NCBI GenBank assembly: GCA_963845565.1 | Contig: CAWJSJ010000001.1 | Span: 448,001 to 512,000 of the forward strand | Origin: an uncultured Methylomirabilota bacterium | Lineage (GTDB): Bacteria; Methylomirabilota; Methylomirabilia; Methylomirabilales; 2-02-FULL-66-22 | DNA: 64,000 nucleotides | Reading direction: 5' to 3' | Part shown: positions 13,260 through 43,781 of the stretch, one piece after another | How the letters are laid out: every line of letters begins with the position of its first letter | Position numbering within the stretch: position 1 is the stretch's first letter | Position numbers and translations under genes: made by a program | Notes under the pieces: generated by a model | The model's database searches: none | What the model saw: only the letters and a program-made list of their open reading frames with translations | Told to the model about the DNA's origin: nothing

Positions 13260-13802
13260 ATGCCGAGTCGGTTGATCATCGTATTGAGCGTCCTGTATCC
13301 CGTGGTGGTGTACGTTGGGGGCCGGTATTTTCCGCCGCAAGCGCTCGCGCTGGTCCTTGCGCTGGTCGTCCTGACGCGCAGGACGGGTGCCTTCGGCGTC
13401 CGGATCGGCCCCTGGTCGGTGGCGTGCGGTCTGATTCTGGCCGTTCTGGCGTTCGGACTCAACGACGCGCTGCCGCTCAAGATGTATCCCGTGGCGGTGA
13501 ACGCATCCCTGCTGGCGATCTTTGCCTCCAGCCTGAGATACCCGCCCCCCATCGCCGAGCGCATCGCCCGCATCCGCGTTCCCGACCTTCCGCCGGAGGC
13601 GGTGGCGTACACGCGCAAGGTGACGCAGGCGTGGTGCGCCTTTTTCGTGGTGAATGCGTTGGTCGCCTTGTGGACCGCCACCCGGTGGCCGGTCCAGGCG
13701 TGGTTCTACTACAACGGGATCATCGCCTATCTCCTGGTCGGGGTCATGTTCGGCGCTGAGTGGCTGGTGCGGCGACGCGTGCTGGCGGGGTACCATTGGT
13801 GA
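13260..13802 (+). CDS. COG4648-like membrane protein typical of aryl-polyene/fatty-acyl clusters
   Basis: RBS AGGAG. LYP..VY.G, LKMYPV.VN...L..FA.SL..PP.I.ERIAR, YTRKVTQAW..FF..N, W..YNG.IAY.L.G..F..EW.VR. Confidence 0.8.
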   Translation: MPSRLIIVLSVLYPVVVYVGGRYFPPQALALVLALVVLTRRTGAFGVRIGPWSVACGLILAVLAFGLNDALPLKMYPVAVNASLLAIFASSLRYPPPIAERIARIRVPDLPPEAVAYTRKVTQAWCAFFVVNALVALWTATRWPVQAWFYYNGIIAYLLVGVMFGAEWLVRRRVLAGYHW

Positions 13803-13856
13803 GGAGGGCGAAGGCATCGCGGCAGTCGCAGATCCAAGGGGAACACGGGGCATGCG

Positions 13857-15302
13857 ATGAGAGTGCTCCTGCTACGACCGGATCCCGGTAACGAGCGCTT
13901 CGGCCTGGGGCCGTTTTTTCGGGTGGAGCCGCTCGGCCTGGAGTACATCGGGGCGGCGCTCCGCGCTTGCGGCCACGAGCCGTGGATCGCGGATCTGCGG
14001 TTTCGTCCGGGCCTGGACACCTGGATCCGGCGCACCCGGCCCCAGTTGGTCGGCATCTCCTGCCTGCATTCACTCGAATACGACCGAGTGCGCGCGACCG
14101 CCCGGGCGGTCCGGCGGGCGGCGCCGGAGGCGTTCGTTCTGGTCGGGGGGCATGCGGCGGCGGCATTCCCGCGGCCGCTCGAATGCGACGAGGTTGATGC
14201 CATCTGCCTTGACGACGGCGAGGAGATCGTGCCGGCCCTGGTCGAGGCGATCGAGCGCGGTGCCCCCCTCGACATGCTGCCGGGGCTCCGACTGCGAATG
14301 GGCGGCGAGTGGCTCGCCACGCCTCCCCGGCCACGGCAGACCGGTCTGGATCTTGTACCCCTCCCGGCGCGCGACCTGGTCGAGCAACACCGGAATGGCT
14401 ATCACTGCCTGCTCTTCAAGCCGATCTGGCTGGTCGAGACGGCACGTGGCTGCCCGTATCGGTGCAGCTTTTGCTCGGTCTGGCAACTCTATGATCGTGC
14501 CTACCGGGAACGGTCCGTGGCGGCGGTGGCGGAGGACTTCGCCTCCGCCGGAGACGCCGTCTTCGTTGCGGACGACCTCTTCTGGCACCATCCGGCACGG
14601 AGCCGCGAACTCGCCGAGGCGCTCCGTAAACGTGGCGTGTCGAAGCGCTGGATCCTGGTGCAGACTCGGACCGACCTCATCTCGCGCCAGACGGAACTCC
14701 TCGAGGTGTGGCGGCCTCTGGCGAAGGATTTTGACATCTTCTTCGGGTTTGAGGCGGCCAGCGACGCCGGCCTCTCCCAGGTGGACAAAGACGCAGGGGT
14801 CGGGGCAAGCCTCGAGGCGGTGCGCATCGCCCGGTCCCTGGGTTACGGGGTCAACGGGAACTTCCTGATCGATCCCGACTGGACGGAGACCCATTTCGCG
14901 GAGCTGTGGGATTTCGTGGCGCGCCACGATCTCCGCCGGGCGGGATTCACCATCCTGACGCCGCTGCCGGGCACCGAATTTTTCGATCGGCTGGCCCCGC
15001 GGCTGGCGGGGCAGCCGTGGCATGCTTACGATATGCACCATCTGCTCTGGGAGCCGCGACTCGGCGCGCGGCGTTTCTTCGAGCTGTATGCCGAAACCTG
15101 GCGGCGATCCATCCTCAACGCGTCCGGAGACAAGACGTGGCTGGACTGGGTGCGGCAGGTGCGACCAACGATGGTACCGTATCTGCTGCGCGTGCTCTGG
15201 CGCACCCAGCGGATGATGAAACCCGAGGCCTACCTCGGCGAGTACCAGGCAACGAACCGGACGTGTCCCGGGTCTTCGAGCAGCGCCGGGGTCGCATCGT
15301 AG
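13857..15302 (+). CDS. B12-binding radical SAM protein (HpnR/BchE-like)
   Basis: EPLGLEYI, VGGHAA, GE (cobalamin-binding domain), ETARGCPYRCSFCSVW, TILTPLPGT. Confidence 0.9.
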   Translation: MRVLLLRPDPGNERFGLGPFFRVEPLGLEYIGAALRACGHEPWIADLRFRPGLDTWIRRTRPQLVGISCLHSLEYDRVRATARAVRRAAPEAFVLVGGHAAAAFPRPLECDEVDAICLDDGEEIVPALVEAIERGAPLDMLPGLRLRMGGEWLATPPRPRQTGLDLVPLPARDLVEQHRNGYHCLLFKPIWLVETARGCPYRCSFCSVWQLYDRAYRERSVAAVAEDFASAGDAVFVADDLFWHHPARSRELAEALRKRGVSKRWILVQTRTDLISRQTELLEVWRPLAKDFDIFFGFEAASDAGLSQVDKDAGVGASLEAVRIARSLGYGVNGNFLIDPDWTETHFAELWDFVARHDLRRAGFTILTPLPGTEFFDRLAPRLAGQPWHAYDMHHLLWEPRLGARRFFELYAETWRRSILNASGDKTWLDWVRQVRPTMVPYLLRVLWRTQRMMKPEAYLGEYQATNRTCPGSSSSAGVAS

Positions 15303-15363
15303 CGAAATGGTGCGGTGTCGGGCCGCGACCTCAGCGGCGGGAGGTAGGCGCAGGACCGTGGCA

Positions 15364-16257
15364 ATGGAGACCGTGGTGGACACCCCGGACCGGCCGAAGC
15401 CCTTCCGACATGTGCTGGCCGCCCCCTGGTTCTATCGTCTGGGGTTCGCGGCGGCGCGCGCGGTGCCCGTTCCCGTTCTGTACGGGATTGCCGATGGCCT
15501 GGGCGTGGCCACGTATCTGACCAACGGCAGGTTGGTCGCCGCAGTGCGCGCGAACCTGACGCGCGCATTCCCCCAGGCATCCGAGCGTGAACGATCACGC
15601 CTGATACGGCGGATCCTCCGGAACTACGTGCGATACCTGGTCGATTACGGCCGTTTTCGGTGGACGCGGCGAGAGGGGTTCGAGGCGCTGATCCCTGCAC
15701 TCGAGGGCGGAGATCACCTACAGGGAGCGTTTGCCGCCGGGCGGGGCGTGATCCTGGTTACGGGGCATGTGGGCAACTGGGAATTGGGGGGGACGTTCTT
15801 CGGCCAATCCGGCGTCAAGATCCATGTGGTCACCCTGCCGGACGGGCACCGACAGATCGACGCCATTCGGGAGCGATATCGGGGGCGCCACGCGATCAGC
15901 ACGATCGTCCTCGACGGGTCGCCGTTTGCCTCGTTGGAGATGATGGCAGCGCTGAAGCGCAACGAGATGGTGGCTATGCTGGTCGACCGGTGGGGGGAAG
16001 CGGATGGGATCGAGTCGCCCTTCTTGGGCGGGACGCATCACCTTCCCCGCGGCCCCTTTGTGCTGAGCCGGGCGACCGGGGCGCCGATCCTGCCTGCCTT
16101 TGTCGTGCGCGACGGGGCCTCCTACCTGGGGATTGTGGAGCCTCCCTTTGTCGTCGAGGGGGACGACTTGGGGCCCTATGCGGCTCGCGTCAGCGGTGCG
16201 CTGGAGCGCGTCATCCGGCGCTACCCGGATCAGTGGTATAATTTCATTCCTGTGTGA
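15364..16257 (+). CDS. Lysophospholipid acyltransferase (lipid A lauroyl transferase/PatA-like family)
   Basis: GHVGNWE (HX4E), MLVDR, F.G, GP..L...TGAPILP, IRRYPDQW. Confidence 0.88.
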   Translation: METVVDTPDRPKPFRHVLAAPWFYRLGFAAARAVPVPVLYGIADGLGVATYLTNGRLVAAVRANLTRAFPQASERERSRLIRRILRNYVRYLVDYGRFRWTRREGFEALIPALEGGDHLQGAFAAGRGVILVTGHVGNWELGGTFFGQSGVKIHVVTLPDGHRQIDAIRERYRGRHAISTIVLDGSPFASLEMMAALKRNEMVAMLVDRWGEADGIESPFLGGTHHLPRGPFVLSRATGAPILPAFVVRDGASYLGIVEPPFVVEGDDLGPYAARVSGALERVIRRYPDQWYNFIPV

Positions 16258-16287
16258 GGCGGCGAGCGCAACCGGAAGGACGGCGAC

Positions 16288-17817
16288 ATGCACCTGACGA
16301 CGCTGGCGGGACGGCGGATTCCCGGTATCACGCGATCGCTTCCGCGGACGGTTCGGTCGCTCTGCCCGGAGTGCCTCCAGACGATCCCGGCAGAGGAATT
16401 GGCCGAGGATGGGCGCGTAGTCATGCGGAAGGCGTGCCCGACGCACGGGCCGTTCAAGGACGTCGTGTTCTCCGACGCCGAGATGTTCCTCCGCATGGAG
16501 GCGTGGCATTTCGGAGACGGCCAGGGGTTCGCGAACCCCCAAGGAGATGCGGACGGGGAGTGTCCGCAGCGGTGCGGCATCTGCGGCTGGCACACCAGCC
16601 ACACCTCGCTGGCCAACGTGGACCTGACCTCCCGGTGCAATCTGTCCTGCCAAGTGTGCTTTGCCGACGCCAACGGGCAGGCCTATGAACTGTCGTTCGA
16701 GCAGGCCATGGACACCCTGCGCCGGCTCCGGGGACAGTGCCCGGCGCCGGCGTTCGCGGTGCAGTTTACCGGCGGGGAACCGACGCTGCATCCGCGGTTT
16801 CTCGACATCGTGGCCGGGGCGAAGGCCCTGGGGTTTTCCCACCTCCAGGTGGCCAGCAACGGGCTGAAGCTGGCGGATCCGGATTTCGCGTGCCGGGCCC
16901 GGGACGCGGGCCTGCAGTACGTGTACCTCCAAATGGACGGGACGACCGACGAGGTGTTCCTCGCGCTCCGCGGCGCGGCACTCCTCGATCGAAAGCTCGC
17001 CGTGCTGGCGTCGGCACGGAAAGCCGGCCTTCGGATCATCTTCGTTCCCACCATTGCCAAGGAGGTGAACGACCACCAGATCGGCGACCTGTTCCGACTG
17101 GCGTTCGAGCACCTGGACGTGCTCTCCGGCATCGCCTTCCAGCCGATGACCTTCACCGGCCGCGTGCCGGAAGGGGACCGGCTGCGTCTGCGCTTCACGC
17201 TCTCGGACCTGGCGCGCGAATTTGGCGAACAAACGGGAATCACGCGGCTGGACGCGGACTGGTTCCCGCTGAGCGCCGCCGTGCCCCTCATCCGGTACGC
17301 CGGGGCCCTGACCGGCACCGCGCTGGTCAACCACACGTGCCACCCGCATTGCGGTCTGATGACCCTGCTGTTCGTCGATCAGGACCGGCGGGCGGTCCCG
17401 ATCACGCGGTTCCTGGACCTCTATTCCCTCCTCACGGATCTCGACGCGTTGGCGGCAAAGACGCACCCGACGAGCATCAAGGTCCTGTCGAAGGCCCGGG
17501 CGCTCCAGGCGCTCAACCGGCACTTCCATTCCGACCGCGCCCCGGAGGGGCTGACGTTCTTGCGATTCCTCCAGACACTGGACGGATTCGGCGACAAGCG
17601 GTACTCCTGGAGCGACGCCCACCGGGGGTACACGTACAAGACCTTCTACGTGCTCGGGATGCATTTCATGGACGCCTACAATTACGATCTCGAGCGCGTT
17701 TCGCGGTGCGGGGTCCATTATTCCGCTCCCGATGGGAAGATCTATCCGTTCTGCTCGTACAATTCGGGGCCGACCTTTCGAAAGCGAGTGGAAGAGGGAG
17801 TGGGATGGGCGCGCTGA
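16288..17817 (+). CDS. Radical SAM protein, tetraether synthase (Tes/GDGT-MAS)-like
   Basis: SLCPEC...K.CP.HG, CP..CGIC..H..HT.LANVDLT.RCNL.C.VCFA, VQF.GGEPT, YLQ.DG, FQP, CHPHCG, GMHFMD.YNYD.ERV.RC.VHY, DG.I.PFC.YN. Confidence 0.8.
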   Translation: MHLTTLAGRRIPGITRSLPRTVRSLCPECLQTIPAEELAEDGRVVMRKACPTHGPFKDVVFSDAEMFLRMEAWHFGDGQGFANPQGDADGECPQRCGICGWHTSHTSLANVDLTSRCNLSCQVCFADANGQAYELSFEQAMDTLRRLRGQCPAPAFAVQFTGGEPTLHPRFLDIVAGAKALGFSHLQVASNGLKLADPDFACRARDAGLQYVYLQMDGTTDEVFLALRGAALLDRKLAVLASARKAGLRIIFVPTIAKEVNDHQIGDLFRLAFEHLDVLSGIAFQPMTFTGRVPEGDRLRLRFTLSDLAREFGEQTGITRLDADWFPLSAAVPLIRYAGALTGTALVNHTCHPHCGLMTLLFVDQDRRAVPITRFLDLYSLLTDLDALAAKTHPTSIKVLSKARALQALNRHFHSDRAPEGLTFLRFLQTLDGFGDKRYSWSDAHRGYTYKTFYVLGMHFMDAYNYDLERVSRCGVHYSAPDGKIYPFCSYNSGPTFRKRVEEGVGWAR

Positions 17818-17839
17818 CGCGGGGCTTGCTGTGACCGGG

Positions 17840-18562
17840 ATGAGGCTCCGCTTCGCTGCGATCGCGGCGCTGGGGTTGTCCTGGTGGACCCCTGGGGGAC
17901 CGGCGGCGGCGCCTGCCCCTGCTCCGATTGAGGGCAAGGAGCGAATCGAGGTTATCGAGCGCCTCCAGACGCAGCAGCGACAGATTACGAGTCTTCGGGC
18001 CACGGTTGTGCAGAGGAGGCGGCACCCGCTCCTGACCGCCGAGGCGGTGAGCGAGGGCACCTTGCTCTTCCAGAAACCCAACCGGGTTCGGTGGGAGGTG
18101 GACAAACCGGATCGGGCCGTCATGGTGATCGACGGGCGCTCGTTGATGACCTATCGCCCCGACAGGCAGGAGGCCGAGCGAAGGGATTTCGGGGCGGATT
18201 TCGGCGCCCGCGCGGCCGTGGAGTTTCTCGCCTCGGGAATGAGTCTTGCGGTGCCCGAACTCGAGAAGCGGTTCCAGGTGGACATGCACCGGGAGGACGG
18301 GATCTTGGTCCTCGTGCTCACGCCCCGATCCCGATGGGCGGCGAAGGCGGTCGCGTCGGTGGCGCTCTATCGGCAAGCGCAGGACGCGGTGCCCAGCCGG
18401 ATCGTGATCTCCGGCCAGCCGGGCGATCGGACGGAGATCACGCTGACCGATATCGTCATCAATCCCCCGGTTGCCGAGGACGCGTTTACCCTCCGTCTTG
18501 GGCCGGGGGTCCGGGTGACGGACATCAGCAGACCGGGAGGAGAGAAGGGCAGTGACCGTTAG
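17840..18562 (+). CDS. LolA-like outer-membrane lipid/lipoprotein carrier
   Basis: Signal peptide, S.G.L.F.KP.R.RWE..KP..MVIDG, C-terminal IN......F. Confidence 0.82.
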   Translation: MRLRFAAIAALGLSWWTPGGPAAAPAPAPIEGKERIEVIERLQTQQRQITSLRATVVQRRRHPLLTAEAVSEGTLLFQKPNRVRWEVDKPDRAVMVIDGRSLMTYRPDRQEAERRDFGADFGARAAVEFLASGMSLAVPELEKRFQVDMHREDGILVLVLTPRSRWAAKAVASVALYRQAQDAVPSRIVISGQPGDRTEITLTDIVINPPVAEDAFTLRLGPGVRVTDISRPGGEKGSDR

Positions 18563-19655
18563 GCCGTCCGCCACCTGCGGGGTGATCGAGCTTCCGGTGC
18601 GCCGAATCCACCTGGAATTGACGAACCGGTGCAACTTCGCCTGCGAGTTCTGCCCAGACGATCGCATGGTTCGGCCTCGCGGCGCCATGCCGCTCTCCCT
18701 GGTCGAGCGTCTGCTGGCGCAAGCCGGCCGGGACCGTGTCGCCCGGGAGGCGCACTTCCACGTCATGGGGGAACCGCTGCTCTATCCCGCGCTGACCGAC
18801 GCGGTCCGCCTTGCCCGCGGCAGCGGGCTGGAGGCGTGGCTGACCACGAACGGGAGCCTGTTGACCCCGGACCTGCTGACGGACCTCCGGGACGCCGGCC
18901 TCTCCCACCTGACTATCTCGCTGCAGACGCCCGATGGCCCCACCTTCGGCCTGCGTGGGTCCCATCGCCTCTCCTTTGCGGAGTACCAGGAGCGGATGGT
19001 TGGCGCAGTGCGCCGCTTTCTGGCGGACGAGTCGGGGATGCACCTTTCGGTCTGCTTTTTGTCCAATCCGCTGCGCCGGTTCCATGCCCCGGGCGCGGCC
19101 CGGCTGCGCGTGGCCGAGTCCGGGAAGGAGTTGCGCGCGCACATGGCGCGTTGGGTGGACGAGATCTTCGGCGGTACGGCCTTCGAGCGCCAGGTGCCGG
19201 AACTCCGCGCTCGGATCCGGAAGGCCGGCATCTTGAAGGAAGGCTGCATCCCCCTGACCGCACACCTTGACTTCCGGGTCCGCGTCCTGGGGAACTGGGC
19301 GGGGCACTTCGCAGGTCCTTTCGTTCCCGCCCGGTTCGGCTACTGCCCGGGGCTGGCCGAGCAGTTCGGGGTCCTGTGGAACGGGGACTACGTGATCTGC
19401 TGCGCGGATTACGACGGACGAACGGCCTTGGCGAACGCCTCGGAAACCTCAGTGGTGGAGTATCTGTCGCTGCCCGCGGTGCAGGAGATCGCGGGTGGCT
19501 TCCGACGGCATCGCGTCATCCACCCGCATTGCCGGCAGTGTCTCGGGGATCGGCACCCGGTGAGTTCCTTCCTGCGGCAGGCCGGATCGATCGTCTATTT
19601 CAAGGTCTACCGGAAGTTCATGAAGGATGGAGTCACAGGGCGGGGCACGGCATGA
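18552..19655 (+). CDS. Radical SAM protein with twitch/SPASM domain
   Basis: ELTNRCNFACEFC, GEPLL, TTNG, C-terminal YC....Q.GVLWNGD.V.CC.DY...CRQC. Confidence 0.9.
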   Translation: MTVRPSATCGVIELPVRRIHLELTNRCNFACEFCPDDRMVRPRGAMPLSLVERLLAQAGRDRVAREAHFHVMGEPLLYPALTDAVRLARGSGLEAWLTTNGSLLTPDLLTDLRDAGLSHLTISLQTPDGPTFGLRGSHRLSFAEYQERMVGAVRRFLADESGMHLSVCFLSNPLRRFHAPGAARLRVAESGKELRAHMARWVDEIFGGTAFERQVPELRARIRKAGILKEGCIPLTAHLDFRVRVLGNWAGHFAGPFVPARFGYCPGLAEQFGVLWNGDYVICCADYDGRTALANASETSVVEYLSLPAVQEIAGGFRRHRVIHPHCRQCLGDRHPVSSFLRQAGSIVYFKVYRKFMKDGVTGRGTA

Positions 19656-21007
19656 ACCTCCTGCTCATATCACCACTGACATCCAAGAGCCTGCTGGGGG
19701 CCGATTTCTATTTCCGGATGCCGACGCTGGGCCTGCTGCGGGTCGCCGGCGCGACACCGCCCGAGTGGACGGTGAGTATCCTCGACGAGAAGGCGGAGCC
19801 GATCGATTTCTCGCGCCCGGCGGACCTGGTCGGAATCACGGGGATGACCCCCGCTATCAACCGCGCGTACGAGATTGCCGATGCGTTCCGCGGCCGCGGC
19901 GTGCCCGTGGTGATGGGGGGAATCCATGTCAGCATGTTGCCGGACGAGGCGCTGGCGCATTGCGATGCCGTGGTCATCGGCGAAGCGGAAGGGCTCTGGG
20001 CGCGTCTGCTGGCGGACTTCCGGGAGGGGCGGCTGCAGCGCCGCTACCAGCACACCGCATTTCCGCCCTTGACGCGGCTCGGCAGCCCGCCGTGGCCCCT
20101 CTACGACGGGAAGCGGTACCTGCCGTTTCACTGCGTGGAGACCAGTCGGGGATGCCCGCACGGATGCGATTTCTGTTCCGTGACGAATTACTTCGGAGGA
20201 TGTTACCGCACGCGCCCGCCGGCGGAGGTGGAGGCGGAGATCCGCGGACTGCGCCCCTTCGCGGGGCGATTCACGCTGAAGAACGTCGTCTTCTTCGTGG
20301 ACGACAACATCGCGGGGGACCGCGCCCATGCGTGCGACTTGCTGACCCGGATGATTCCCTATCGGCTCAAGTGGCTTGGCCAGGCGTCGACCGGCATTGC
20401 TCGAGACGACGAGGTGCTGGACCTGTGCCGGAAGAGCGGCTGCATGGGTCTGCTGATCGGTTTCGAGACGCTGTCTCGGGAGCGGCTCAAGGCGGTGCGT
20501 AAGGGATTCAATCGCCCCGACGACTACCTGGACGCCATCCGGAAAATTCACGATTACGGGATCGGCATCAGCGGCGCGTTCGTCTTCGGTCTGGATGGCG
20601 ACGACGAAGGGGTGTTCGACCGGACCTACGAGTTCGTGCAAAAGGCGAGGCTGGAGAGCCCCTACTTGTCTATCCTTACCCCCTACCCCGGGACACGCCT
20701 ACACCGAAAACTTGCGGACGAAGGGCGCATTGTCGATTTGGACTGGTCCAATTACAACACCAACAACGTGGTGTACCGGCCCCAGGGGATGACGGCAGAG
20801 CAGTTGTTCGACGGGTATTTCCAGCTGCAGAAGGCGGTCCACACGGTGCCGGCCATCGTGCAGCGGTTCTGGGGAACCACCTCGCGGGCCAACTTCTGGC
20901 TGCCCATGAATTACGGGTTCCGTCGCTCGGTCCAGAAGCTGGCGGCGCGGTCGCGAGAGTTTCGCCCGGTCGGGTCGGGCTTTACGAACACGACGCCCGC
21001 CGCGTGA
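19652..21007 (+). CDS. B12-binding radical SAM protein (paralogue A)
   Basis: P.LGL..VA..TP, DE, VVMGGIH, IGEAE, TSRGCPHGCDFCSV, FFVDDN, ILTPYPGT. Confidence 0.92.
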   Translation: MNLLLISPLTSKSLLGADFYFRMPTLGLLRVAGATPPEWTVSILDEKAEPIDFSRPADLVGITGMTPAINRAYEIADAFRGRGVPVVMGGIHVSMLPDEALAHCDAVVIGEAEGLWARLLADFREGRLQRRYQHTAFPPLTRLGSPPWPLYDGKRYLPFHCVETSRGCPHGCDFCSVTNYFGGCYRTRPPAEVEAEIRGLRPFAGRFTLKNVVFFVDDNIAGDRAHACDLLTRMIPYRLKWLGQASTGIARDDEVLDLCRKSGCMGLLIGFETLSRERLKAVRKGFNRPDDYLDAIRKIHDYGIGISGAFVFGLDGDDEGVFDRTYEFVQKARLESPYLSILTPYPGTRLHRKLADEGRIVDLDWSNYNTNNVVYRPQGMTAEQLFDGYFQLQKAVHTVPAIVQRFWGTTSRANFWLPMNYGFRRSVQKLAARSREFRPVGSGFTNTTPAA

Positions 21008-22185: not shown

Positions 22186-22186
22186 G

Positions 22187-23242: not shown

Positions 23243-23264
23243 GGTCACCAGGAAAGGGATCGAC

Positions 23265-24620: not shown

Positions 24621-24656
24621 GGGGGTGGGTCGGACCTCAGAGAGGAGGGAAATGTC

Positions 24657-26557: not shown

Positions 26558-26779
26558 TTGTGGGATCGACAGTACGCCTCATCACTCGGGATCTTCGTTG
26601 GCGTCGCCGTCGTTTGCCTCATCGGGATCATGTCCCTGCTGCTCTGGCTCGGCTGGGCCGGCGTCGCGGGACTCTCGGCGATCGCGGGCGGATTCTTGGC
26701 CTGGTTCTACTGGGCCCCTCGTCCGGACCTGACCCCGAGGGGCGACGAGCCCGAACCGGATGGGACGCAGCATGACTAG
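26558..26779 (+). CDS. Small two-TM membrane protein
   Basis: 73-aa ORF with two hydrophobic segments, tightly packed between the deacetylase and the ketosynthase. Confidence 0.55.
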   Translation: MWDRQYASSLGIFVGVAVVCLIGIMSLLLWLGWAGVAGLSAIAGGFLAWFYWAPRPDLTPRGDEPEPDGTQHD

Positions 26780-36195: not shown

Positions 36196-36924
36196 ATGGG
36201 GCAGGTAGTGCTGGTCACCGGCGGAAGCCGCGGGATCGGGCGCAGCGTTGTGTTGGCCTTCGCCGACCCCGGCGCGTTCGTCGGTATCAATTACCGGCGT
36301 GAGGCGGACGCCGCCGCGGAGGCTCTGGCAGAGGTCCGGCGTCGGGGTGCCGACGGGATGACGTTGCAGGCGGATGTCACCGATCTGAGTCAAGTCCGCT
36401 CGATGGTCGGCGCGTTGGCTGCCCGCTGCGGCGGGATCGACGTCCTGGTCAACAACGCGGGGGTCAACCGGGACGGCCTCCTTGCCATGATGGACCCTCA
36501 GGATTGGGATACGGTCCTCGATCTCAATTTGAAAGGCGTGTTCCACTGCTGTAAGGTCGTCGGGCGCGTCCTGATGACGCAACGGCGCGGCGCGATCGTG
36601 AACGTGTCCTCGCTGAGCGGGATCATCGGTTTACCGGGGCAAACCAACTACGCCGCCGCCAAGGGGGGCGTGAACGCCTTGACGCGGGCCCTGGCGCAGG
36701 AAATGGGGCGGTTCGGGGTTCGCGTGAATGCCGTCGCCCCCGGTCTGGTGGACGGCGAGATGACGGCGAGGATTCCTGCCGCTCAGCGTGCGCGGTTGAT
36801 GGCCGGCATTCCGATGGGTCGAATGGCGACCCCGGAGGAGGTTGCCGCCGTGGTCAGATTCCTTGCCTCCGATGCCGCATCCTACATCACGGGACAAGTC
36901 CTTCCGGTGACCGGTGGAATCTGA
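36196..36924 (+). CDS. fabG: 3-oxoacyl-ACP reductase
   Basis: TGGSRGIG, VNNAG..RD, NYAAAK, VNAVAPG, YITGQ. Confidence 0.93.
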   Translation: MGQVVLVTGGSRGIGRSVVLAFADPGAFVGINYRREADAAAEALAEVRRRGADGMTLQADVTDLSQVRSMVGALAARCGGIDVLVNNAGVNRDGLLAMMDPQDWDTVLDLNLKGVFHCCKVVGRVLMTQRRGAIVNVSSLSGIIGLPGQTNYAAAKGGVNALTRALAQEMGRFGVRVNAVAPGLVDGEMTARIPAAQRARLMAGIPMGRMATPEEVAAVVRFLASDAASYITGQVLPVTGGI

Positions 36925-37017
36925 CCCGATCGCGCACACGTCCCGCGCGAACGGGCGCGCACCTGCACACGCCGGGCGACGGATGCGCCGCAGCAACATT
37001 TCCCCTGCAAAACAACT

Positions 37018-37046
37018 TTGACGGTCTGCTCGGGCCTTGGTATTCT
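37018..37046 (+). promoter_or_regulatory. Internal sigma70-type promoter upstream of the ACP gene
   Basis: TTGACG-N17-TATTCT with an extended TG, in a ~250-bp gap. Confidence 0.65.
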
Positions 37047-37172
37047 CACCCGTCATGCGGCGCCACGCAGGGGGCGCAGCCGAGCCGAGTGCCTCGCGCG
37101 AAGAGGTGTGCGGCCACCTCATACGGTCGCGTGTCGCCTTCCACCGCGTTGTCCCATCGGAGTGTCTGGCGT

Positions 37173-37430
37173 ATGAATGAGATTGTGCAGCGGGTCAGGG
37201 CATTGCTTTCGACGCGACTCAAATTGGCGACGGCGGTCGCGGGGATCACCGACGATACGCCGCTCTTCGGCCCGACCGGTCTTGGGCTCGACTCGATCGA
37301 TGCGCTGGAGTTGGTTTTGGGCCTGGAGAAGGAATTCGGGGTCGTCGTGGAGGATCGGGCGACGGCCGTCACGGTCCTGGCCTCCATCCGGACGATCGCG
37401 GAGCATATTCAGTCGCAGGGAAAGGGTTGA
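37173..37430 (+). CDS. Acyl carrier protein
   Basis: ITDDTPLFG..GLGLDSIDALEL...LEKEFG (phosphopantetheine Ser), aryl-polyene-cluster style ACP. Confidence 0.92.
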   Translation: MNEIVQRVRALLSTRLKLATAVAGITDDTPLFGPTGLGLDSIDALELVLGLEKEFGVVVEDRATAVTVLASIRTIAEHIQSQGKG

Positions 37431-37434
37431 GCGT

Positions 37435-37860
37435 ATGGTCGGAGATCCCGCCTCGTTTCTTCCTCATGGCCTCTCGTTCCGGTTCGTCGATCGGGTCCTG
37501 GAACTCGTTCCGGGAGAGCGGGTCGTCGCGCTGAAGAATGTGACCGCGAACGATCCGCATCTGCAGGATCATTTCCCCGGACATCCGCTCATGCCGGGCG
37601 TGCTCTTGGTGGAGTCCATGGCGCAGACCGCCGGACTGCTCCTGCCGGAAGGCTCCTCCGCCTTTCTGGCGCAGATCAAGGAGGCGCGTTTTCGCGCGCC
37701 GGTGATTCCCGGCGATCAGCTTCGGATTGAAGCCGTCCGCCGCGGCGGCCTGAGCGATCTGCACCGCTTCGAGGTCGCGGCCTTGGTCAACGGCACTCCG
37801 GCCGCGGAGGCAGAGATCGTGCTGGCGGTCGTGAGGGCGAACGCGGGGGGCCGGCCGTGA
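37435..37860 (+). CDS. fabZ: 3-hydroxyacyl-ACP dehydratase
   Basis: LPH...F.FVD, KNVT.N, HFPG.P.MPGVL.VE.MAQ, FR.PV.PGD. Confidence 0.92.
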   Translation: MVGDPASFLPHGLSFRFVDRVLELVPGERVVALKNVTANDPHLQDHFPGHPLMPGVLLVESMAQTAGLLLPEGSSAFLAQIKEARFRAPVIPGDQLRIEAVRRGGLSDLHRFEVAALVNGTPAAEAEIVLAVVRANAGGRP

Positions 37861-38786
37861 CCGTTCGCGAGACGCGCGAGGGGTGCGCTACCGCCACGCT
37901 TGGCGACGCGTCGAGTTGGCGCGGTACGACCGCCGTTCTGGGCAGCGAGACTGTGGCCTGCAATCTGTGCGGGACAGCGGACGCCGCCCCGGTGGTGGGC
38001 GGGGCATTCGCGATGGTGCGATGCCGCACCTGCGGACTGGTCTATCTGAATCCACGGCCGACGCCCGATGTCTTGCTGGCCTTGTACGTGGACTACCATG
38101 CCCGGTTCGGCCAGAACGAGACGGTCTGGGATCGTTTGATGAATCGGATCTTCCGCGAGGCGGAGGATCTACTCTGCGCGTCGGTCCGCGGCCCGGGACC
38201 GCAGCGTCTTCTGGATGTGGGATGCGGGTTCGGTGGGTTCGTCGCCGCGATGCGGCGCCGGGGGTGGGACGTCGAGGGGTTGGATCCTTCTCCGACGGCA
38301 GTGGCGGCCGCCAGGGCGATGGAGCGTCCGGTCCGTCTGGGGACCCTGGACGCACTCCAGGGTGAACGCGGGAAATATGATGCCATCACCATGTTCTATG
38401 TGCTCGAACACCTCCCCGATCCCATGGGGGCGCTCCGCACAGCCTGGAGCCTGCTTGGACCCGGGGGAATCCTGTTGCTTCGGGTCCCGCACACCACGCC
38501 CATCGTCCGCCTGCTGGCGCCCTTCGGCGCGGGCGGATCGCTCTACGATCCGCCGTTTCACCTGTACGATTTTTCTCCGACGGTCCTCCGGGAGATGGTC
38601 GCGCGCGCGGGGTTTGATGATATCCGGACGTTCCCGGGACGGCCGACCGTCCCATCCCGGCCGGGGGCCCGCGCCGCCGCGGCGTGTTTCGGGGCGCTGG
38701 CCGCAACGCTCCACAGGCTGACGCGAGGCGCGGTGCTCCTGCCGGGGGTGAGCAAGACCACGATCGCCCGGAAACCATCAAACTGA
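37857..38786 (+). CDS. SAM-dependent methyltransferase with N-terminal Zn ribbon
   Basis: CNLC...CRTCGLVYLNPRP, LLDVGCG.G, VLEH..DP, L.PGG, PFHL. Confidence 0.88.
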   Translation: MTVRETREGCATATLGDASSWRGTTAVLGSETVACNLCGTADAAPVVGGAFAMVRCRTCGLVYLNPRPTPDVLLALYVDYHARFGQNETVWDRLMNRIFREAEDLLCASVRGPGPQRLLDVGCGFGGFVAAMRRRGWDVEGLDPSPTAVAAARAMERPVRLGTLDALQGERGKYDAITMFYVLEHLPDPMGALRTAWSLLGPGGILLLRVPHTTPIVRLLAPFGAGGSLYDPPFHLYDFSPTVLREMVARAGFDDIRTFPGRPTVPSRPGARAAAACFGALAATLHRLTRGAVLLPGVSKTTIARKPSN

Positions 38787-41296
38787 TGCTGGAATCCTGG
38801 CTCCGCCGATTGGCCCGAACCATAGACGCCAACCCGCGTCGCATCGCCATCGCCTGCCTGCTCGCGGCTCTCCTGGCCGCCGCCGTTGTCGTACGGATTC
38901 CCGTCACGACCGAACTGCTGGATGTCATGCCGGGCCGGGCCCCCGCGATCGTGGCGTTCACGGATTTCCTGCGGGACTTCGGGGTCCTGAATGGGCTGGT
39001 CATCGTGGTGGAAACCCAAGAAACGTCGGCCGAGACGCTCCTGGCCGTGGTTGAGTCGCTGGGCGAGCGATTGTCCGCCTCCGCGGCGGTGGCGTCGGTG
39101 GACTACAACGCGTTGCGGTCCGGTTTCCGGTTTGTCGCCGAGCATTTTCCTGTGTACCTGGACGACGGCGCGGTTGCCCGGCTTTCGCGCCGGCTGACCC
39201 CGGGGGGAATTCAGGCCCAGATCACGCGGAACCGGGAGGCATTGTTGTCTCCCGTGGCGTTTCCCTTCGAGGCCGAGGCGATCGGGAAAGATCCGCTGGA
39301 CATCCGGGCCTTGGTGCGGGACAGCCTCGTGACGCGGGTCTCCACCGGGGCGCTCGACCTGTCCACGGGCTATTACCTCGATCGCTCCCACCGTTTGGCG
39401 CTGTTGATGGTGCGGCCCCGCGGTTCGACCCGAGATCTATCCTTCGTCCGGAGCTTAGAGGAGGAGGTGCGCCGCATCGCGGCGGAGGTGATTGCGGCGG
39501 AAGGCGATCCGCGGACGATCCGGGTCGGCTTGGCAGGGGGGTATGCCCGCGCCGCCGAGGCGGTGGCGGTGATCTGGCAGGACATGCTGCTCTCCTTCGG
39601 CGTGTCGCTGGTCCTGGTGGTCTTTCTCCTGTGGGCGGCGTTCCGTCCGTCAATCATCGTGATCGGGGTTTTCGTCGCGACGCTGTTCGCGGCGCTCGCC
39701 TGGACCCTGTGGTTGGCGTACCTGCTGTACGGTACCCTCAATATCGTGACCAGCATCGTGGCGGCCATGCTGGTCGGGTTATTCGTGGACTACAATATCC
39801 ACGTCTACCAGCGGTTCCGGGAGTCCTTCCGGGCGAACGGGAGGACGGCGCAGGCCCTGGAGACGACGCTCACCGGAACAGGGAAGGCGATTCTCAGCGG
39901 GGCGCTCACCACGGCGTTGTCCTTTTTTTCTGTGGTCGTTACCAGCTTTCGCGGGATGCACGAATTGGGGGTCGTGGCGGGGTGTGGGGTGCTCGTGTGT
40001 CTGCTGGCGACTCTCGTGTTCATGACTGCGCTCCTCACCTGGCTTGCTCAGAGCCGGCCGACGCGGCTCCTGGCGGGCCGGCCGGTCGATCTCGGGGCGG
40101 GCTGGGCGGCACGCCTCGTCGCTCGGCGTGGGGGGGCGCTCACCATCGGGTTCGTGCTGCTGGTGGCGATCGCCGTCTGGGGCGCGACGCTGGTTCGGTT
40201 CGATGCGAGCCTCGAATCACTCGGGCTGCGAGACAGCGCGGTACAGGCGGTGGAGGAGACGCTCCAGCGAGTGCTCGGCCGGAGCGGCGAGCCGCTCTTT
40301 GTCGTCGTGCGAGGCGCCAACGATGGGCAGATCGCACGGGATTTCGATGCGCTGGACCGGCAGGGCGCACGCTGGCGCGCCCAGGGCACGATCGGCGGTT
40401 TCGCGTCGGCGGGGCTGCTGTTGCCGCCGCCGTCTCGACAGCGGCAGACCCTGGCGCGCCTGGCCGCCGAGGGGCTCCCGGGGCGGTTCGACGGACCTGG
40501 ACTGGCCAAGCTCGTCCGGACTGAGATGGGCCGGCAGGGTATGGTCGCGGACGCCGCCCTCGATGGCTACGCGGCGGGAATCGTCCGGGCGCTATCCGCC
40601 GGCGAGGTGGTCGGCCTGGCGGAACTCGCCCGGACGCAGGACCCCCGTGCCGCCTATTACTACCATCACGACCGACGGGCCCTGGCGGCACACCTGACGC
40701 CGCCGGGTTCGGGCTGGGACCGGGCCACACTCTCGGCACTCGAAGCGGACGTGCGCCTGCTCGGAGCAGGGTTTCGCCTGGTCGGCCCGGCCGTTTTCTT
40801 GGAGCAGATCCGGGCGACGATCCTGTGGGAGGCAGGACTGGCGGTGGTGCTCTCCTTTGCTGCGAACCTGTGCATCGTCCGGTTCCACTTCCAGAACTGG
40901 CGCCGTGTGTGGCTGGTCATGGTCCCGGTCACGGTCGGGGCGATTCTGACGGTGGGGAGCATGGGGGTGTTGGGGATGCGGTTCAATTTCTTCAACGTGG
41001 CAGGCATCGCCCTGATCTTCGGATTCGGCGTGGACTACGGGATCTACCTGATGCAAGCGCACGTGGAAGGGAACTCCGCGTGCGGCGCCGACGCGGTGCG
41101 ATCGGTCGGAGGGGGTGTGATCCTGTGCGCCGTCACGACGCTGGCAAGCTGCGGGAGCCTGATCACCACGCACTATCGGGGCCTCGCGTCCATCGGGGCG
41201 GTCCTGTGCCTGGGCACGCTGTTCTGCCTGGCGACCACGCTGCTGCTCCTGCCTCCCCTGATGGGGCGCTTCGGGAAGACGGGCATTCGGCCGTGA
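38786..41296 (+). CDS. MMPL/RND family lipid exporter
   Basis: Two periplasmic domains and two TM blocks containing GL.VDY.IH and GFGVDYGIY. Confidence 0.9.
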   Translation: MLESWLRRLARTIDANPRRIAIACLLAALLAAAVVVRIPVTTELLDVMPGRAPAIVAFTDFLRDFGVLNGLVIVVETQETSAETLLAVVESLGERLSASAAVASVDYNALRSGFRFVAEHFPVYLDDGAVARLSRRLTPGGIQAQITRNREALLSPVAFPFEAEAIGKDPLDIRALVRDSLVTRVSTGALDLSTGYYLDRSHRLALLMVRPRGSTRDLSFVRSLEEEVRRIAAEVIAAEGDPRTIRVGLAGGYARAAEAVAVIWQDMLLSFGVSLVLVVFLLWAAFRPSIIVIGVFVATLFAALAWTLWLAYLLYGTLNIVTSIVAAMLVGLFVDYNIHVYQRFRESFRANGRTAQALETTLTGTGKAILSGALTTALSFFSVVVTSFRGMHELGVVAGCGVLVCLLATLVFMTALLTWLAQSRPTRLLAGRPVDLGAGWAARLVARRGGALTIGFVLLVAIAVWGATLVRFDASLESLGLRDSAVQAVEETLQRVLGRSGEPLFVVVRGANDGQIARDFDALDRQGARWRAQGTIGGFASAGLLLPPPSRQRQTLARLAAEGLPGRFDGPGLAKLVRTEMGRQGMVADAALDGYAAGIVRALSAGEVVGLAELARTQDPRAAYYYHHDRRALAAHLTPPGSGWDRATLSALEADVRLLGAGFRLVGPAVFLEQIRATILWEAGLAVVLSFAANLCIVRFHFQNWRRVWLVMVPVTVGAILTVGSMGVLGMRFNFFNVAGIALIFGFGVDYGIYLMQAHVEGNSACGADAVRSVGGGVILCAVTTLASCGSLITTHYRGLASIGAVLCLGTLFCLATTLLLLPPLMGRFGKTGIRP

Positions 41297-42738
41297 AGTG
41301 GGATGCCGTGGTCGTCGGGTCCGGAATCGGCGGGCTGGCCTGTGCCGGCATGCTGGCGGCGCAGGGCGCCAAGGTGGCCGTACTGGAGCAGGCGACGGCT
41401 CCCGGTGGCTACCTGACCTCCTTTCGTCGAGGCGGCTTCACTTTCGACACCGCGGTGGACTGCATTGCCGGCCTCGATCCGGACGGCTTACTGACGTGGC
41501 TCCTGCGCGCGTTGGGGGTGGACGGCCGCTTGACCCGAATCCGTCTGGACCCCATCCGGGTGAGCAGATTTCCCGGTGTGACCATCCCGGTGGATGCGAG
41601 CTTGCCGGCCTACATCGACCGATTGTCCTGCCGCTTCCCCTCCGAGCGACACGGCATCGCGGCGTTCTTCCGGCGCGCCGGGGAGATCTATGACGGGGTG
41701 GAAGCCATGATGAACTCGGTCAAAACGGGGAGAGCGCACGCCGATGCGTTTCCCGCGGCGCTGCTGCGCTACGGCCACCTGACCTACGGGGACTTGCTGC
41801 GTCACGATATCCGAGACGCCCAGCTCTCCGCCATCCTGTCCGATCGCTGCCCCTTTCTCGGCTCACCCCCGGTCCGCGTGTCTGCGACCCGGATGATCGC
41901 CCTGGTGATGAGCTATTTCCGGTCCGGCGCCTACCGGCCGGCGGGTGGCCATCAGCGGCTTCCCGACCTCCTGGTGGAGGGCATCCGGCGCGCCGGATGC
42001 GAGGTCTGGCTTGGGCGCCCCGCCAGGCGGATCCTCCTGGAAGGCGGGCGGTGTACCCGCGTCCTGGCCGACGACGGTGCGGAGTTTCCCGCCAGGCACG
42101 TCGTGTCGAACGCCGACTTCCGGGAAACCTTCGGACGTCTGATCGGGGGGGCCGTGGGCGGAGCCGTCCTCGCGGGTGCTCGCGAGCGACCGCTCTCGCC
42201 GTCGTTCTTTGTTGCGTATGCGGGAGTCCGCAAGGATACCGGGCGGCACGGCGCCTCGAGCATCGGATCCTTCGGAGACTTCGATCTGGATGCGTTTCTG
42301 GACCGGTATATGCCCTTCTCGGACGCGGATGCGCTCGGCGTGACCATCCCCACAGTGGAGGACCCCAGTCTGGCCCCCCCGGGACACGATGTCGTGGTGG
42401 TCCACGAACTCATCCCCAACGGCTACCCGTGTGATTGGACCCGAGCGAAGAGTGCCCGCCTGGACCACGTGCTCCGCAAGGCCGAGCGGGTTCTGCCGGG
42501 ATTGACGGAACGGGTGGTCTCCCGTGACGCTGCTACCCCCTCGACACTGGAGCGGTACACCCGGAATGCGGGGGGTGCCGCGTATGGTTGGGACCAAACC
42601 CCGCACCCGTTCCGGGTCCGCCATGGGATCGACAATTTGCATCTGGCTGGGCACTGGGCGGAAGCCGGCGGCGGCGTCCTGGCCGCCGCCTACGCCGGGA
42701 TGCGGGTTGCCGCCAGGATCATCGAGGCCGGCGCATGA
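41293..42738 (+). CDS. Phytoene desaturase (CrtI)-like FAD oxidoreductase
   Basis: VVVGSGIGGL, E....PGGY..SF.R.GF.FD, P.GG, DPSLAP.G, ATP.T.ERYT.N..GA.YG, NL.LAG.W..GGG. Confidence 0.9.
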   Translation: MKWDAVVVGSGIGGLACAGMLAAQGAKVAVLEQATAPGGYLTSFRRGGFTFDTAVDCIAGLDPDGLLTWLLRALGVDGRLTRIRLDPIRVSRFPGVTIPVDASLPAYIDRLSCRFPSERHGIAAFFRRAGEIYDGVEAMMNSVKTGRAHADAFPAALLRYGHLTYGDLLRHDIRDAQLSAILSDRCPFLGSPPVRVSATRMIALVMSYFRSGAYRPAGGHQRLPDLLVEGIRRAGCEVWLGRPARRILLEGGRCTRVLADDGAEFPARHVVSNADFRETFGRLIGGAVGGAVLAGARERPLSPSFFVAYAGVRKDTGRHGASSIGSFGDFDLDAFLDRYMPFSDADALGVTIPTVEDPSLAPPGHDVVVVHELIPNGYPCDWTRAKSARLDHVLRKAERVLPGLTERVVSRDAATPSTLERYTRNAGGAAYGWDQTPHPFRVRHGIDNLHLAGHWAEAGGGVLAAAYAGMRVAARIIEAGA

Positions 42739-43781
42739 GTCGAAGCAACTCGGTCGCCGCAGTCATCGCCGCCTACAACGCCCGGGAACGGATCGCCGAG
42801 GTCATCACGGGAGCCTTTCGTCATGTGCGGACCGTGATCGTTGCGGACGACGGCTCGACGGACGGGACGGCGCAGGTCGCCAAGGAGGCGGGCGCCGAGG
42901 TGATCGTGTTGTCGGAGAATCGCGGGAAGGGCAACGCGCTTCGAGTCCTCTTCGCCGAGGCCCGGAGACGCGGACTGTCTGCGGTGATCGCGCTCGATGC
43001 CGACGGCCAGCACGACCCGGACGACATTCCCGCCTTTCTCGGAGTTCACCGCGACCACCCCGACGCGATCCTCACCGGGTCGCGGATGGGGGCTCCGGAC
43101 CGCATCCCGCGCCACCGGCGCAATTCGATGGTGGTGGCGCGCTTCTTCATCTCCCTGGCCGCCAATCAGTTCATCGAAGATACCCAATGCGGGTTCCGCC
43201 TGTATCCCCTCTCGGCGCTCGAGGCGCTCTCCCTCCACCGGGAGCGGTATGTGACCGAGACCGAGATCCTGCTCAAGGCGGGGGACTCGGGACGGGCGAT
43301 CCGATCCCTCCCCATCAAGGCGCTGTACCCGCCCGGACACCCAACCCACTTCCGGTCCGTCCCGGACGTCGCCGCCATCTCCGTCTACGTGATCTCCTAT
43401 CTGATGGTGAAGTGGGGAATCGAAGGGCTGCGACCCGGCGTCGTCAATACGTACCGGGGGGCGGGTACGGCGCGCGATCGGTTTTCTCTCTCGCCCGGGT
43501 GGGATCGCGCCTTCGAAGTCTTCACGCTCTGTGCATCCCTCCCGCTGACCATGCTGTATGGCGCATGGTACTACCTGGCCCGCTGGTGCGGCCTTCCGGT
43601 CCTCCAGAGCTTGGCGCGGAGCGAAATCCCGGTGGGGAGGCTGCTCTTGTCCGTCCTGTTGCTCCCGGGACTGCTGGCGGTGTCGATCGTGGATCTGCTC
43701 GGAAACCGGTTGGGGATGCGTCCGGACCTCACGACCGGTTTCGTCCGTCGGTACTATCTGAACCCCTGGACGTGGCGATAA
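42735..43781 (+). CDS. GT2 glycosyltransferase with C-terminal TM segments
   Basis: AYN, DDGSTDGT, N.GKG.AL, DADGQH, DTQCGFRLY. Confidence 0.9.
   Translation: MSRSNSVAAVIAAYNARERIAEVITGAFRHVRTVIVADDGSTDGTAQVAKEAGAEVIVLSENRGKGNALRVLFAEARRRGLSAVIALDADGQHDPDDIPAFLGVHRDHPDAILTGSRMGAPDRIPRHRRNSMVVARFFISLAANQFIEDTQCGFRLYPLSALEALSLHRERYVTETEILLKAGDSGRAIRSLPIKALYPPGHPTHFRSVPDVAAISVYVISYLMVKWGIEGLRPGVVNTYRGAGTARDRFSLSPGWDRAFEVFTLCASLPLTMLYGAWYYLARWCGLPVLQSLARSEIPVGRLLLSVLLLPGLLAVSIVDLLGNRLGMRPDLTTGFVRRYYLNPWTWR

Follow-up and report, generated by a model that had tools for sequence, protein, structure and literature searches.

A Tes-family radical SAM gene lies between acyltransferase and lipid-carrier genes in a larger relative of the anammox ladderane-candidate lipid cluster

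Positions 13260-43781 of the DNA analysed here hold a block of 28 intact open frames, all on the + strand (numbered g01 to g28), which is a larger version of the lipid cluster regarded as a ladderane candidate in anammox bacteria (kuste3352-3335 of Kuenenia) and which probably directs the synthesis of an outer-membrane glycolipid. The window, i.e. the whole 64,000-nt stretch, corresponds to positions 448001-512000 of contig CAWJSJ010000001.1 of an uncultured Methylomirabilota bacterium, whose genome (5.36 Mb, 66% GC) is 98.7% complete. The block contains an intact gene for an enzyme of the radical S-adenosylmethionine (SAM) type, belonging to the Tes/GDGT-MAS family, g04 (16288..17817), located between genes for an LpxL/PatA-family acyltransferase, of the type that transfers acyl groups onto sugars (g03; 15307..16257; PF03279, E 7e-37), and a LolA-like periplasmic lipid carrier (g05; 17840..18562; PF03548). 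This arrangement offers a hint at the possible substrates of such bacterial enzymes. As far as our literature searches reach, four observations are new: how far upstream the cluster really extends, its patchy distribution in the anammox order, the peptide at the kuste3350 position and the LpxL-Tes-LolA clade.

The g04 protein passes the Tes family model NF045702 (474.9 bits; cut-off 450), and its residues 20-503 align with GDGT-MAS (7TOL) with an E value of 8.5e-109. It is 36-37% identical to the Tes protein of Methanocaldococcus jannaschii (7TOL, 7TOM; PMC9433317, PMC8941075), with which it shares the four-domain build and the metal ligands. The ligands named in PMC9433317 are retained in (i) the rubredoxin domain (C26/C29/C50/H53), (ii) the N-terminal cluster (C92/C96/C99/H102) and (iii) the radical SAM cluster (C117/C121/C124), as are M458 of the C-terminal cluster (equivalent to Met439) and the conserved Y478 (equivalent to Tyr459). 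The C-terminal Cys ligands (C355/C474/C489) were assigned from the alignment, the source passages giving no numbers for them. Across 73 aligned relatives, these ligands vary little or not at all. A structural model predicted from the alignment of 73 sequences (pLDDT 84.7; a model folded from the single sequence, pLDDT 35.8, was discarded) matches 7TOM over 492 columns (TM 0.85/0.87, E 2.5e-49), whereas the next family, MoaA, reaches 0.35. Besides the limited identity, g04 differs from the archaeal enzyme in its bacterial host and in its fixed position within a polyketide lipid cluster, where LpxL and LolA flank it.

In a quick tree of 42 Tes rows, from which partial, frameshifted and archaeal sequences were left out, all 28 rows with an adjacent LpxL gene fell on one branch (SH-aLRT 99); 26 of these also had LolA, and one was a duplicate. 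Because most rows had been reached through the methyltransferase gene g16, the search was repeated in metagenomes with Tes itself as the anchor, and the best 80 of 517 loci were assessed, split at 57% identity. Among the 67 loci at or above this value, LpxL stands directly upstream in all 50 that could be assessed, the other 17 being too short, and 57 of 61 have LolA downstream, while the 13 loci below it gave 0/10 and 0/9, respectively. The threshold was set after the data had been seen and most loci are close kin, so the counts describe a fixed linkage within one clade and not independent events. The same division was seen in the phylum of genome G094 (401 genomes, 23 with a Tes match), where four of 21 new loci were close (LpxL 3/4, LolA 4/4) and 17 distant (0/15 for both). 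In the phylum of G086, eight of 301 genomes exceeded the Tes cut-off; four belonged to the LpxL-linked clade, all of them genomes with the g16 cluster. A Tes match (E ≤1e-40) was present in 26 of the 39 genomes reached through g16 loci, including none of the five anammox genomes among them, and no genome of 92 from the anammox order exceeded the cut-off. Literature searches, whose coverage largely excludes subscription papers, returned no description of Tes between LpxL and LolA.

The slot itself varies. LpxL and LolA stand side by side without Tes in three other Deltaproteobacteria records, and in G081 (L130 13942-15248) two PlsC-type acyltransferase genes fill it instead, which is why we regard it as a lipid-anchor slot. 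In eight of 13 Tes-bearing genomes tested, neither the ketosynthase KS1 nor an orthologue of the radical SAM enzyme g20 was found, and these eight retain all or part of the series LpxL-Tes-LolA-ATP-grasp-deacetylase-peptide-g16. It is thus the anchor and export genes, and not a particular chain-building core, that Tes accompanies. A DarB-family synthase gene adjoins the Tes cassette in L035 (11754-12902), and in G094 (L115 2728-6500) Tes lies beside DarB-family and DarH genes, together with what we presume to be a DarA-like gene; these cassettes suggest resorcinol-anchored variants. More distant Tes-like radical SAM proteins (approx. 28-34% identity) were observed in genomes of the Nitrospirota phylum (L101, L102, L170-L173), a PaaK-like ligase gene adjoining five of the six.

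The published annotation of kuste3352-3335 (PMC2649909, PMC4790861) matches the window from the TPR gene (g11; 24657..25634) through the GT2 glycosyltransferase gene (g28; 42735..43781). The published order, comprising deacetylase, an ORF, FabF, inactive FabF, methyltransferase, FabF, an unassigned protein, PaaK, two radical SAM proteins, FabG, acyl carrier protein (ACP), FabZ, methyltransferase, membrane protein, desaturase and glycosyltransferase, is collinear both with the window and with the closed genome G143. The latter belongs to the same taxonomic order as the Jettenia record, carries the whole gene order and served as a stand-in for the Kuenenia cluster; by eye, kuste3345, kuste3347 and kuste3350 (S2 Table of PMC4790861) start like the G143 ORFs at the same positions. 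For 22 of the 23 G143 proteins with a counterpart in the window (FabZ being the exception) the best hit in the host genome lies inside the block, and window proteins g06, g16 and g27 were also searched in reverse against whole anammox genomes. The G143 counterparts are 29-60% identical (23% for the TPR protein), and both g21 and its counterpart pass TIGR04072. The synteny is thus real, and the assignment of the 3′ half of the block to the Kuenenia kuste3335-3352 type stands. Relatives in Geobacter-type bacteria, which the original prediction had also named, appear, along with Desulfotalea, in PMC2649909, but none was returned by a scan anchored on g16.

The first 13 kb had been taken for an expansion of this cluster. 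This did not hold, since eight of the 13 genes up to position 26779 have counterparts in the same order in genomes of the anammox order: those for LpxL, LolA, a radical SAM/SPASM protein, the first B12-dependent radical SAM protein, an ATP-grasp ligase, the TPR protein, the deacetylase and a small membrane peptide. Only g01, g02, g04, g09 and g10 are extra. In G143, G117, G138, G139, G076 and G090 the cluster begins at LpxL, followed by LolA, a VTT-domain protein, the radical SAM/SPASM protein, exported proteins, B12-dependent radical SAM protein, ATP-grasp ligase, (where detected) the TPR protein, deacetylase, peptide and KS1. The published Kuenenia boundary therefore leaves out the upstream LpxL, LolA, VTT, radical SAM/SPASM, B12-dependent radical SAM and ATP-grasp genes that these genomes carry; the window block, unlike them, has no VTT gene. 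In G143, the ATP-grasp and TPR genes are separated by a few unrelated genes, among them a nucleotidyltransferase/HepT-like pair with another small ORF (L143 14966-15991), and this insertion may explain where the published boundary was placed. No account of an extension upstream of kuste3352 was found in the literature, within the search coverage mentioned above.

A further correction concerns kuste3350, published as a 66-aa ACP (PMC4790861). The ORF at this position in G143 (L143 17697-17897) encodes a hydrophobic peptide homologous to g13 (26558..26779), and the published sequence reads likewise. Comparison of g13 with peptides of 54-67 aa from anammox bacteria and Nitrospirota gave 93% in hhalign, and a hydrophobic ORF occupies the kuste3350 position in 32 loci.

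The chain-building core comprises two pairs of ketosynthase (KS) genes. KS1 (g14; 26772..27995; Cys162, His295, His332) and KS2 (g17; 30188..31393) keep the Cys-His-His triad, while their partners, g15 (27995..29062) and g18 (31390..32358), resemble chain-length factors (CLFs), with Glu and Thr, respectively, at the catalytic Cys and both His missing. In anammox cluster I, such active and inactive proteins act as KS/CLF heterodimers, according to the published work. Between the pairs lies g16 (29059..30195; match to 8HD2, E 3e-59), an orthologue of the ACP-binding C-methyltransferase AmxMT1 (kuste3347 type), which keeps the AmxMT1 His-Glu dyad and Tyr (His323/Glu327/Tyr273). AmxMT1 was proposed to α-methylate an ACP-bound β-ketoacyl chain (PMC9821293). 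The core is completed by a FabG ketoreductase (g22; 36196..36924), an ACP with the motif DSID (g23; 37173..37430; PF00550) and a FabZ dehydratase (g24; 37435..37860; NF000582, 125 bits against 113); the block encodes no enoyl reductase. The CrtI/CrtISO-like FAD oxidoreductase g27 (41293..42738) is of the kuste3336 type, for which no CrtI (phytoene desaturase) activity was reported in the published work. Downstream of g18, g19 (32352..33668) encodes a PaaK-like aryl-acid CoA ligase, whose closest family is FlxY (NF053551), described as a 4-coumarate-CoA ligase (PMC3992019).

The accessory genes mirror those of aryl polyene lipid (APEL) and flexirubin clusters (LolA, RND exporter, glycosyltransferase, acyltransferase, deacetylase and aryl-CoA ligase; PMC8253772, 10.1101/2020.12.19.423268, PMC3992019), in which a type II polyketide chain is attached to an anchor and then transported to the outer membrane. 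With the APEL clusters of Xenorhabdus doucetiae and E. coli CFT073 the block shares the KS/CLF line, aryl-acid ligase, glycosyltransferase and LpxL-type acyltransferase, LolA-like carrier, RND/MMPL exporter and methyltransferase. It differs from them in having one ACP, no ApeD-type GPAT, no DUF3261/ApeN protein and FabZ in place of ApeI/ApeP (PF22818 below cut-off), and adds seven radical SAM enzymes, a deacetylase, an ATP-grasp ligase and a CrtI-like enzyme. The canonical aryl polyene core, defined as KS, two ACPs, CLF, an ApeI/ApeP dehydratase, a ketoreductase and the ApeM transporter, is therefore not present, although GT2, LpxL, LolA and MMPL of the anchor/export set are. A COG4648 protein would be a further common element if g01 is, as we assume, ApeG/COG4648-like. 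The flexirubin cluster of Chitinophaga pinensis (PMC3992019) has the deacetylase, acyltransferase, LolA, glycosyltransferase and exporter in common with the window, and FlxY is the best ligase family. Membership of that class was rejected: the DarB model NF005293 has no match in the host genome, the DarA-like, DarB and DarH proteins of L115 gave no hit, the 28 block genes (the part of the genome searched for it) include no tyrosine ammonia-lyase (FlxA), and the FlxY, FlxB and LolA2 models all remain below cut-off in the block. The block is a member of the kuste3352-3335/TIGR04072 kind of cluster. It resembles APEL and flexirubin clusters in its presumed working but lacks defining features of both, and it is not cluster I.

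On the strength of this gene set, we consider it rather likely that the product is an outer-membrane glycolipid resembling aryl polyene lipids, tailored by radical enzymes and perhaps cross-linked tail to tail; the earlier idea of a heavily tailored envelope lipid thus remains the best class. The reactions set out here are inferred from the genes, residues, folds, gene order and distribution that were observed directly. The overall design would be a type II polyketide/fatty-acid line of APEL/flexirubin architecture that places an unusual acyl chain on a sugar-containing anchor and sends it to the outer membrane. In this scheme, (i) the FlxY-like ligase g19 would activate an aromatic acid starter; (ii) KS1/g15 and KS2/g18, paired by analogy with the cluster I heterodimer, would extend it on the ACP with FabG and FabZ, and since there is no enoyl reductase the double bonds would stay, unless g27 removes or moves them; (iii) g16 would add α-methyl branches on the ACP, the reaction that has been proposed for AmxMT1 (PMC9821293), and the B12-dependent radical SAM enzymes may add methyl groups or rings at unactivated carbons, as their family suggests; (iv) the GT2 enzyme would add an N-acetylhexosamine, which g12 would deacetylate, g08 would re-acylate the amine and g03 would transfer an acyl chain from the ACP; (v) Tes would couple the ends of two alkyl chains of the anchored lipid, giving a macrocycle or dimer; and (vi) the MMPL exporter g26 and LolA would export the product, as do ApeM and ApeL by analogy. 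From the anammox copies a lipid of the same class would result, with step (v) left out. Given this product class, coupling of chain ends by Tes is a possibility that we place somewhat below even chances, and the complete proposal, in which enzymes of this Tes clade join the tails of an outer-membrane glycolipid, polyketide-derived and methyl-branched, so that a macrocyclic or membrane-spanning molecule results, is put forward tentatively.

Several points, besides the post hoc threshold and kinship of the Tes loci, weigh against this proposal. The aromatic starter depends on g19, which scores 398 bits against the FlxY cut-off of 520, and the two KS pairs share a single ACP, against two ACPs in APEL clusters. 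The literature searched contains no product, enzyme assay or lipid analysis for any copy of the cluster and no bacterial Tes shown to be active; Thermotoga and Thermoanaerobacter are described as using Mss, without Tes, and polyene chains are outside the known Tes substrates.

The strongest alternative, to which we assign an appreciable but minor share of the probability, keeps the lipid class and gives the Tes clade another radical chemistry: it might desaturate the anchored lipid, insert sulfur, close a ring inside a single chain or couple a chain to a ring. The modest identity of g04 to the M. jannaschii enzyme, the likely polyene or aryl product (unlike phytanyl chains), the published substrate-sulfur intermediate of Tes and the report that one of two Methanosarcina acetivorans homologues made no glycerol dialkyl glycerol tetraether (GDGT) are all consistent with it. 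Against it, all four metal sites are retained across the 73 relatives, together with both the labile Met and the conserved Tyr, the fold matches over 492 columns, and the archaeal enzyme has been reported to bind bacterial diacyl lipids.

It is improbable, in our view, that Tes acts instead on ordinary or ether phospholipids to give membrane-spanning lipids like branched GDGTs (brGDGTs), with the cluster supplying methyl-branched chains and the B12-dependent radical SAM enzymes methylating and cyclising them. Branched chains would indeed result from AmxMT1-type α-methylation, the Grs ring synthases are B12-dependent radical SAM enzymes, and bacterial Tes homologues have been proposed as brGDGT synthases, according to the published work. 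The host also possesses Ger/PlsA-type ether-lipid genes, in two overlapping frames (PF01869 followed by PF09989; - strand; L176 4208-8523, approx. 359-363.5 kb of the same contig), but these lie approx. 100 kb away, the genes linked with the Tes clade are those for LpxL, LolA, deacetylase and ATP-grasp proteins and not phospholipid genes, and the known bacterial membrane-spanning lipids are reported to come from Mss.

Still less probable is a division of the block into two adjoining operons, one for surface modification that runs from LpxL to the deacetylase, the other a fatty-acid operon from KS1 to GT2. The upstream genes do persist in the eight genomes in which no KS1 or g20 orthologue was found, parts are rearranged or on separate contigs in several Deltaproteobacteria records, and a σ70-type promoter site precedes the ACP gene (37018..37046, + strand; TTGACG, spacer of 17-18 nt, TATTCT). 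The boxes of this site are kept in G009, G004 and G061, and one other such site occurs in the host genome; the block may accordingly comprise more than one transcript, a point that also weighs against the main reading. A promoter scan of 12900-32000 gave no sites (1.8 expected), and terminator counts were close to chance (10 against 10.3 expected and 11 against 6.3). Opposed to the two-unit view are the full order kept across four lineages, the touching or overlapping deacetylase-peptide-KS1 junctions and the ACP-dependent MT1, which travels with the upstream genes.

The association with ladderanes that came with the original prediction proved weak. Members of the g16 (MT1) family occur in nine of the 92 anammox-order genomes and proteins above the TIGR04072 cut-off in ten (41 more have weaker paralogues only), whereas the B12-dependent radical SAM protein of cluster I (query L159, adjoining an inactive KS and a CrtI-like gene) has a match of at least 71% identity in 82 and some match in 90. 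The marker of the window cluster is missing from genomes with megabase contigs (G118, G120, G124, G145 and G160). Because the cluster markers are so patchy and cluster I is nearly general in the order, a ladderane role for the window cluster is unlikely; the literature, too, favours cluster I (kuste3603-3608) as the ladderane candidate. Cluster I likewise has active and inactive KS, CrtI-like, B12-dependent radical SAM, ACP and FabZ genes, but its radical SAM protein has no orthologue in the host genome, where the best match reaches 36%. Running the other way, the closest matches to that protein in the host genome, g07 and g10 (34-36%), belong to the block, many of the 92 genomes are incomplete, and one study states that numerous anammox species possess AmxMT1/2 and reports a pull-down in which AmxMT1 bound the ACP of cluster I (PMC9821293). 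Expression of most Kuenenia cluster II genes in a heterologous host yielded no new fatty acids, with the two radical SAM proteins undetected (PMC4790861), and this counts against the glycolipid reading; the upstream genes omitted from the published cluster may help explain the null result. That the cluster makes ladderanes or other cyclobutane lipids in a non-anammox bacterium is, in spite of its collinearity with the published candidate, very improbable given these counts and the report that Desulfotalea, which has a similar cluster, had no ladderanes (PMC2649909).

Of the 27 gene junctions in the block, 15 overlap and 24 are overlapping or at most 36 nt apart, the larger gaps being 54, 85 and 248 nt. 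All nine overlaps listed by the original prediction read ATGA or GTGA, and the 3′ order from KS to GT2 agrees with the Pfam and NCBIfam matches. Its count of 27 co-oriented genes was right as to orientation and short by one frame, probably the 73-codon membrane peptide at 26558-26779; three genes of the 5′ arm (g01, LpxL and LolA) were also missing from its list. The seven radical SAM enzymes it named, four of them B12-binding, were recovered, with PF04055 in seven proteins (each with a CxxxCxxC motif) and PF02310 in four of these. The GC content of the block (0.66-0.68) is near that of its flanks (0.65-0.66), and a recent foreign origin is unsupported.

The remaining genes, all on the + strand, are as follows. 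The membrane protein g01 (13260..13802), without matches in Pfam and NCBIfam, is 62-97% identical to homologues in four genomes of the same genus. The B12-dependent radical SAM protein g02 (13857..15302; PF02310, PF04055) is missing from the G004 and G061 copies of the block. Its suggested identity as HpnR was rejected: it is the best TIGR04367 match in a genome having squalene-hopene cyclase, yet scores 232 bits against a cut-off of 650. The LpxL-type protein g03 has a counterpart of approx. 40% identity in the anammox loci, and the corresponding values are 42-47% for the radical SAM protein with a SPASM/twitch domain, g06 (18552..19655; PF04055, PF13186; five of five anammox genomes), 58-62% for the B12-dependent radical SAM protein g07 (19652..21007) and 51-54% for the ATP-grasp carboxylate-amine ligase g08 (21004..22185; PF15632). 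The α/β hydrolase g09 (22187..23242; PF00561) has a lipobox-like N-terminus, and its counterpart stands after GT2 in two Dissulfurispiraceae records; g10 (23265..24620) is a second B12-dependent radical SAM protein, 47% identical to its paralogue g07. The exported TPR protein g11 corresponds in its N- and C-terminal parts to two different proteins of G143, of which one occupies the kuste3352 position, and an ESM Atlas search with g11 gave generic TPR clusters only. The polysaccharide deacetylase g12 (25631..26557; PF01522 and DUF3473, PF11959) is in the kuste3351 position. Further downstream are a radical SAM/SPASM enzyme (g20; 33665..34735), the lipid-biosynthesis B12/radical SAM protein g21 (34746..36110), which passes TIGR04072 with 397.2 bits against 360, a class I methyltransferase whose best solved relatives are UbiG and sugar C-methyltransferases (g25; 37857..38786), the MMPL/RND lipid exporter g26 (38786..41296; PF03176) and the GT2 enzyme g28 (PF00535), with a C-terminal membrane part.

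Among the host and 60 relatives, proteins above the TIGR04072 and Tes cut-offs were each found in six genomes, all of the same genus. Five of its members (G004, G006, G009, G016 and G019) have the same gene order at 51-98% identity, and G009 carries all 28 genes on a single contig, with many frameshifts. The order recurs, with gaps, in records labelled Nitrospirota, Deltaproteobacteria and anammox Planctomycetes (Jettenia, Brocadia). Such recurrence in five genomes and other lineages argues against chance; in part of the genus the block forms a stable unit and is not a local accident. The g16 family is small, with 32 clusters at E ≤1e-30 among 1.84 billion representatives, and its labelled members include Ca. 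Methylomirabilis and NC10. A scan anchored on g16 gave 42 loci, labelled NC10, Deferrimicrobium and other Deltaproteobacteria, Nitrospirota, Jettenia, Brocadia and Brocadiaceae; it used a narrower alignment (A3) because the widest (A2) had no sufficiently conserved stretch, and so covers all but the most distant MT1 relatives. One locus labelled Bacteroidales (L031) is 75-95% identical to the window, and the label is probably a binning or labelling error. In copies from G093, G076, G090, G138 and G139 (L065, L114, L048, L062, L148, L150), FabG is missing between the TIGR04072 gene and ACP. G018, of the same genus, carries a different cluster of this superfamily (G018:C8 1-12000, L030) with B12-dependent radical SAM, TIGR04072 (608 bits), GT2, LpxL, ACP, KS and CLF genes.

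Part of 16000-24000 was present in 11 of 17 listed sequencing runs, none holding half of the sequence words. Four sediment RNA libraries, from three studies, yielded contigs that fall in 22-30 of the 30 bins of 13000-32000, in most cases below 95% identity, and one contig spans the Tes and LolA genes; these libraries possibly include DNA.

Several neighbouring and distant genes were noted. A 2x[4Fe-4S] ferredoxin gene (44061-44327) lies 3′ of the block, followed by one for an MFS transporter (44826-45986), and the ferredoxin could serve as an electron source for the radical SAM enzymes. CbiQ and CbiM cobalt-uptake genes (8372-10406, - strand) lie approx. 3 kb upstream of the block and its four B12 enzymes. 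Elsewhere in the genome there are further ketosynthase/FabZ/FabG clusters on contig C2 (approx. 2.59-2.60 Mb, L177, and 1.25-1.26 Mb, L178), one with a PaaK-like ligase, and a squalene-hopene cyclase above cut-off (C5 417416-419323); no protein of the genome passes the HpnR cut-off. A pmoA search of the genome gave no match and, having had no positive control, says little on methanotrophy.

For the anammox bacteria, these results mean that 18 of the 34 published ladderane candidate genes belong to a cluster that is absent from most searched genomes of the order and present in non-anammox anaerobes. Some 9 kb upstream, which contain LpxL, LolA and two further radical SAM genes, are left out of the published version of this cluster, whose "ACP" kuste3350 appears to be a membrane peptide. 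The search for the ladderane genes narrows to cluster I. Bacterial Tes homologues are known by the hundreds, and one clade is here found fixed between the acyltransferase and the lipid carrier of a defined lipid pathway, whose natural Tes-plus and Tes-minus versions can be compared. If the tail-coupling proposal is true, a substrate would for the first time be defined for a bacterial Tes, and bacteria would have a third way of making tail-to-tail lipids, in addition to Mss and the acidobacterial route; it would occur widely in the NC10, Nitrospirota and Deltaproteobacteria that inhabit anoxic sediments. The uncrosslinked precursor would then be the product of the anammox copies, which have no Tes, and the pathway would be a possible source of orphan branched diacid or tetraether-like biomarkers.

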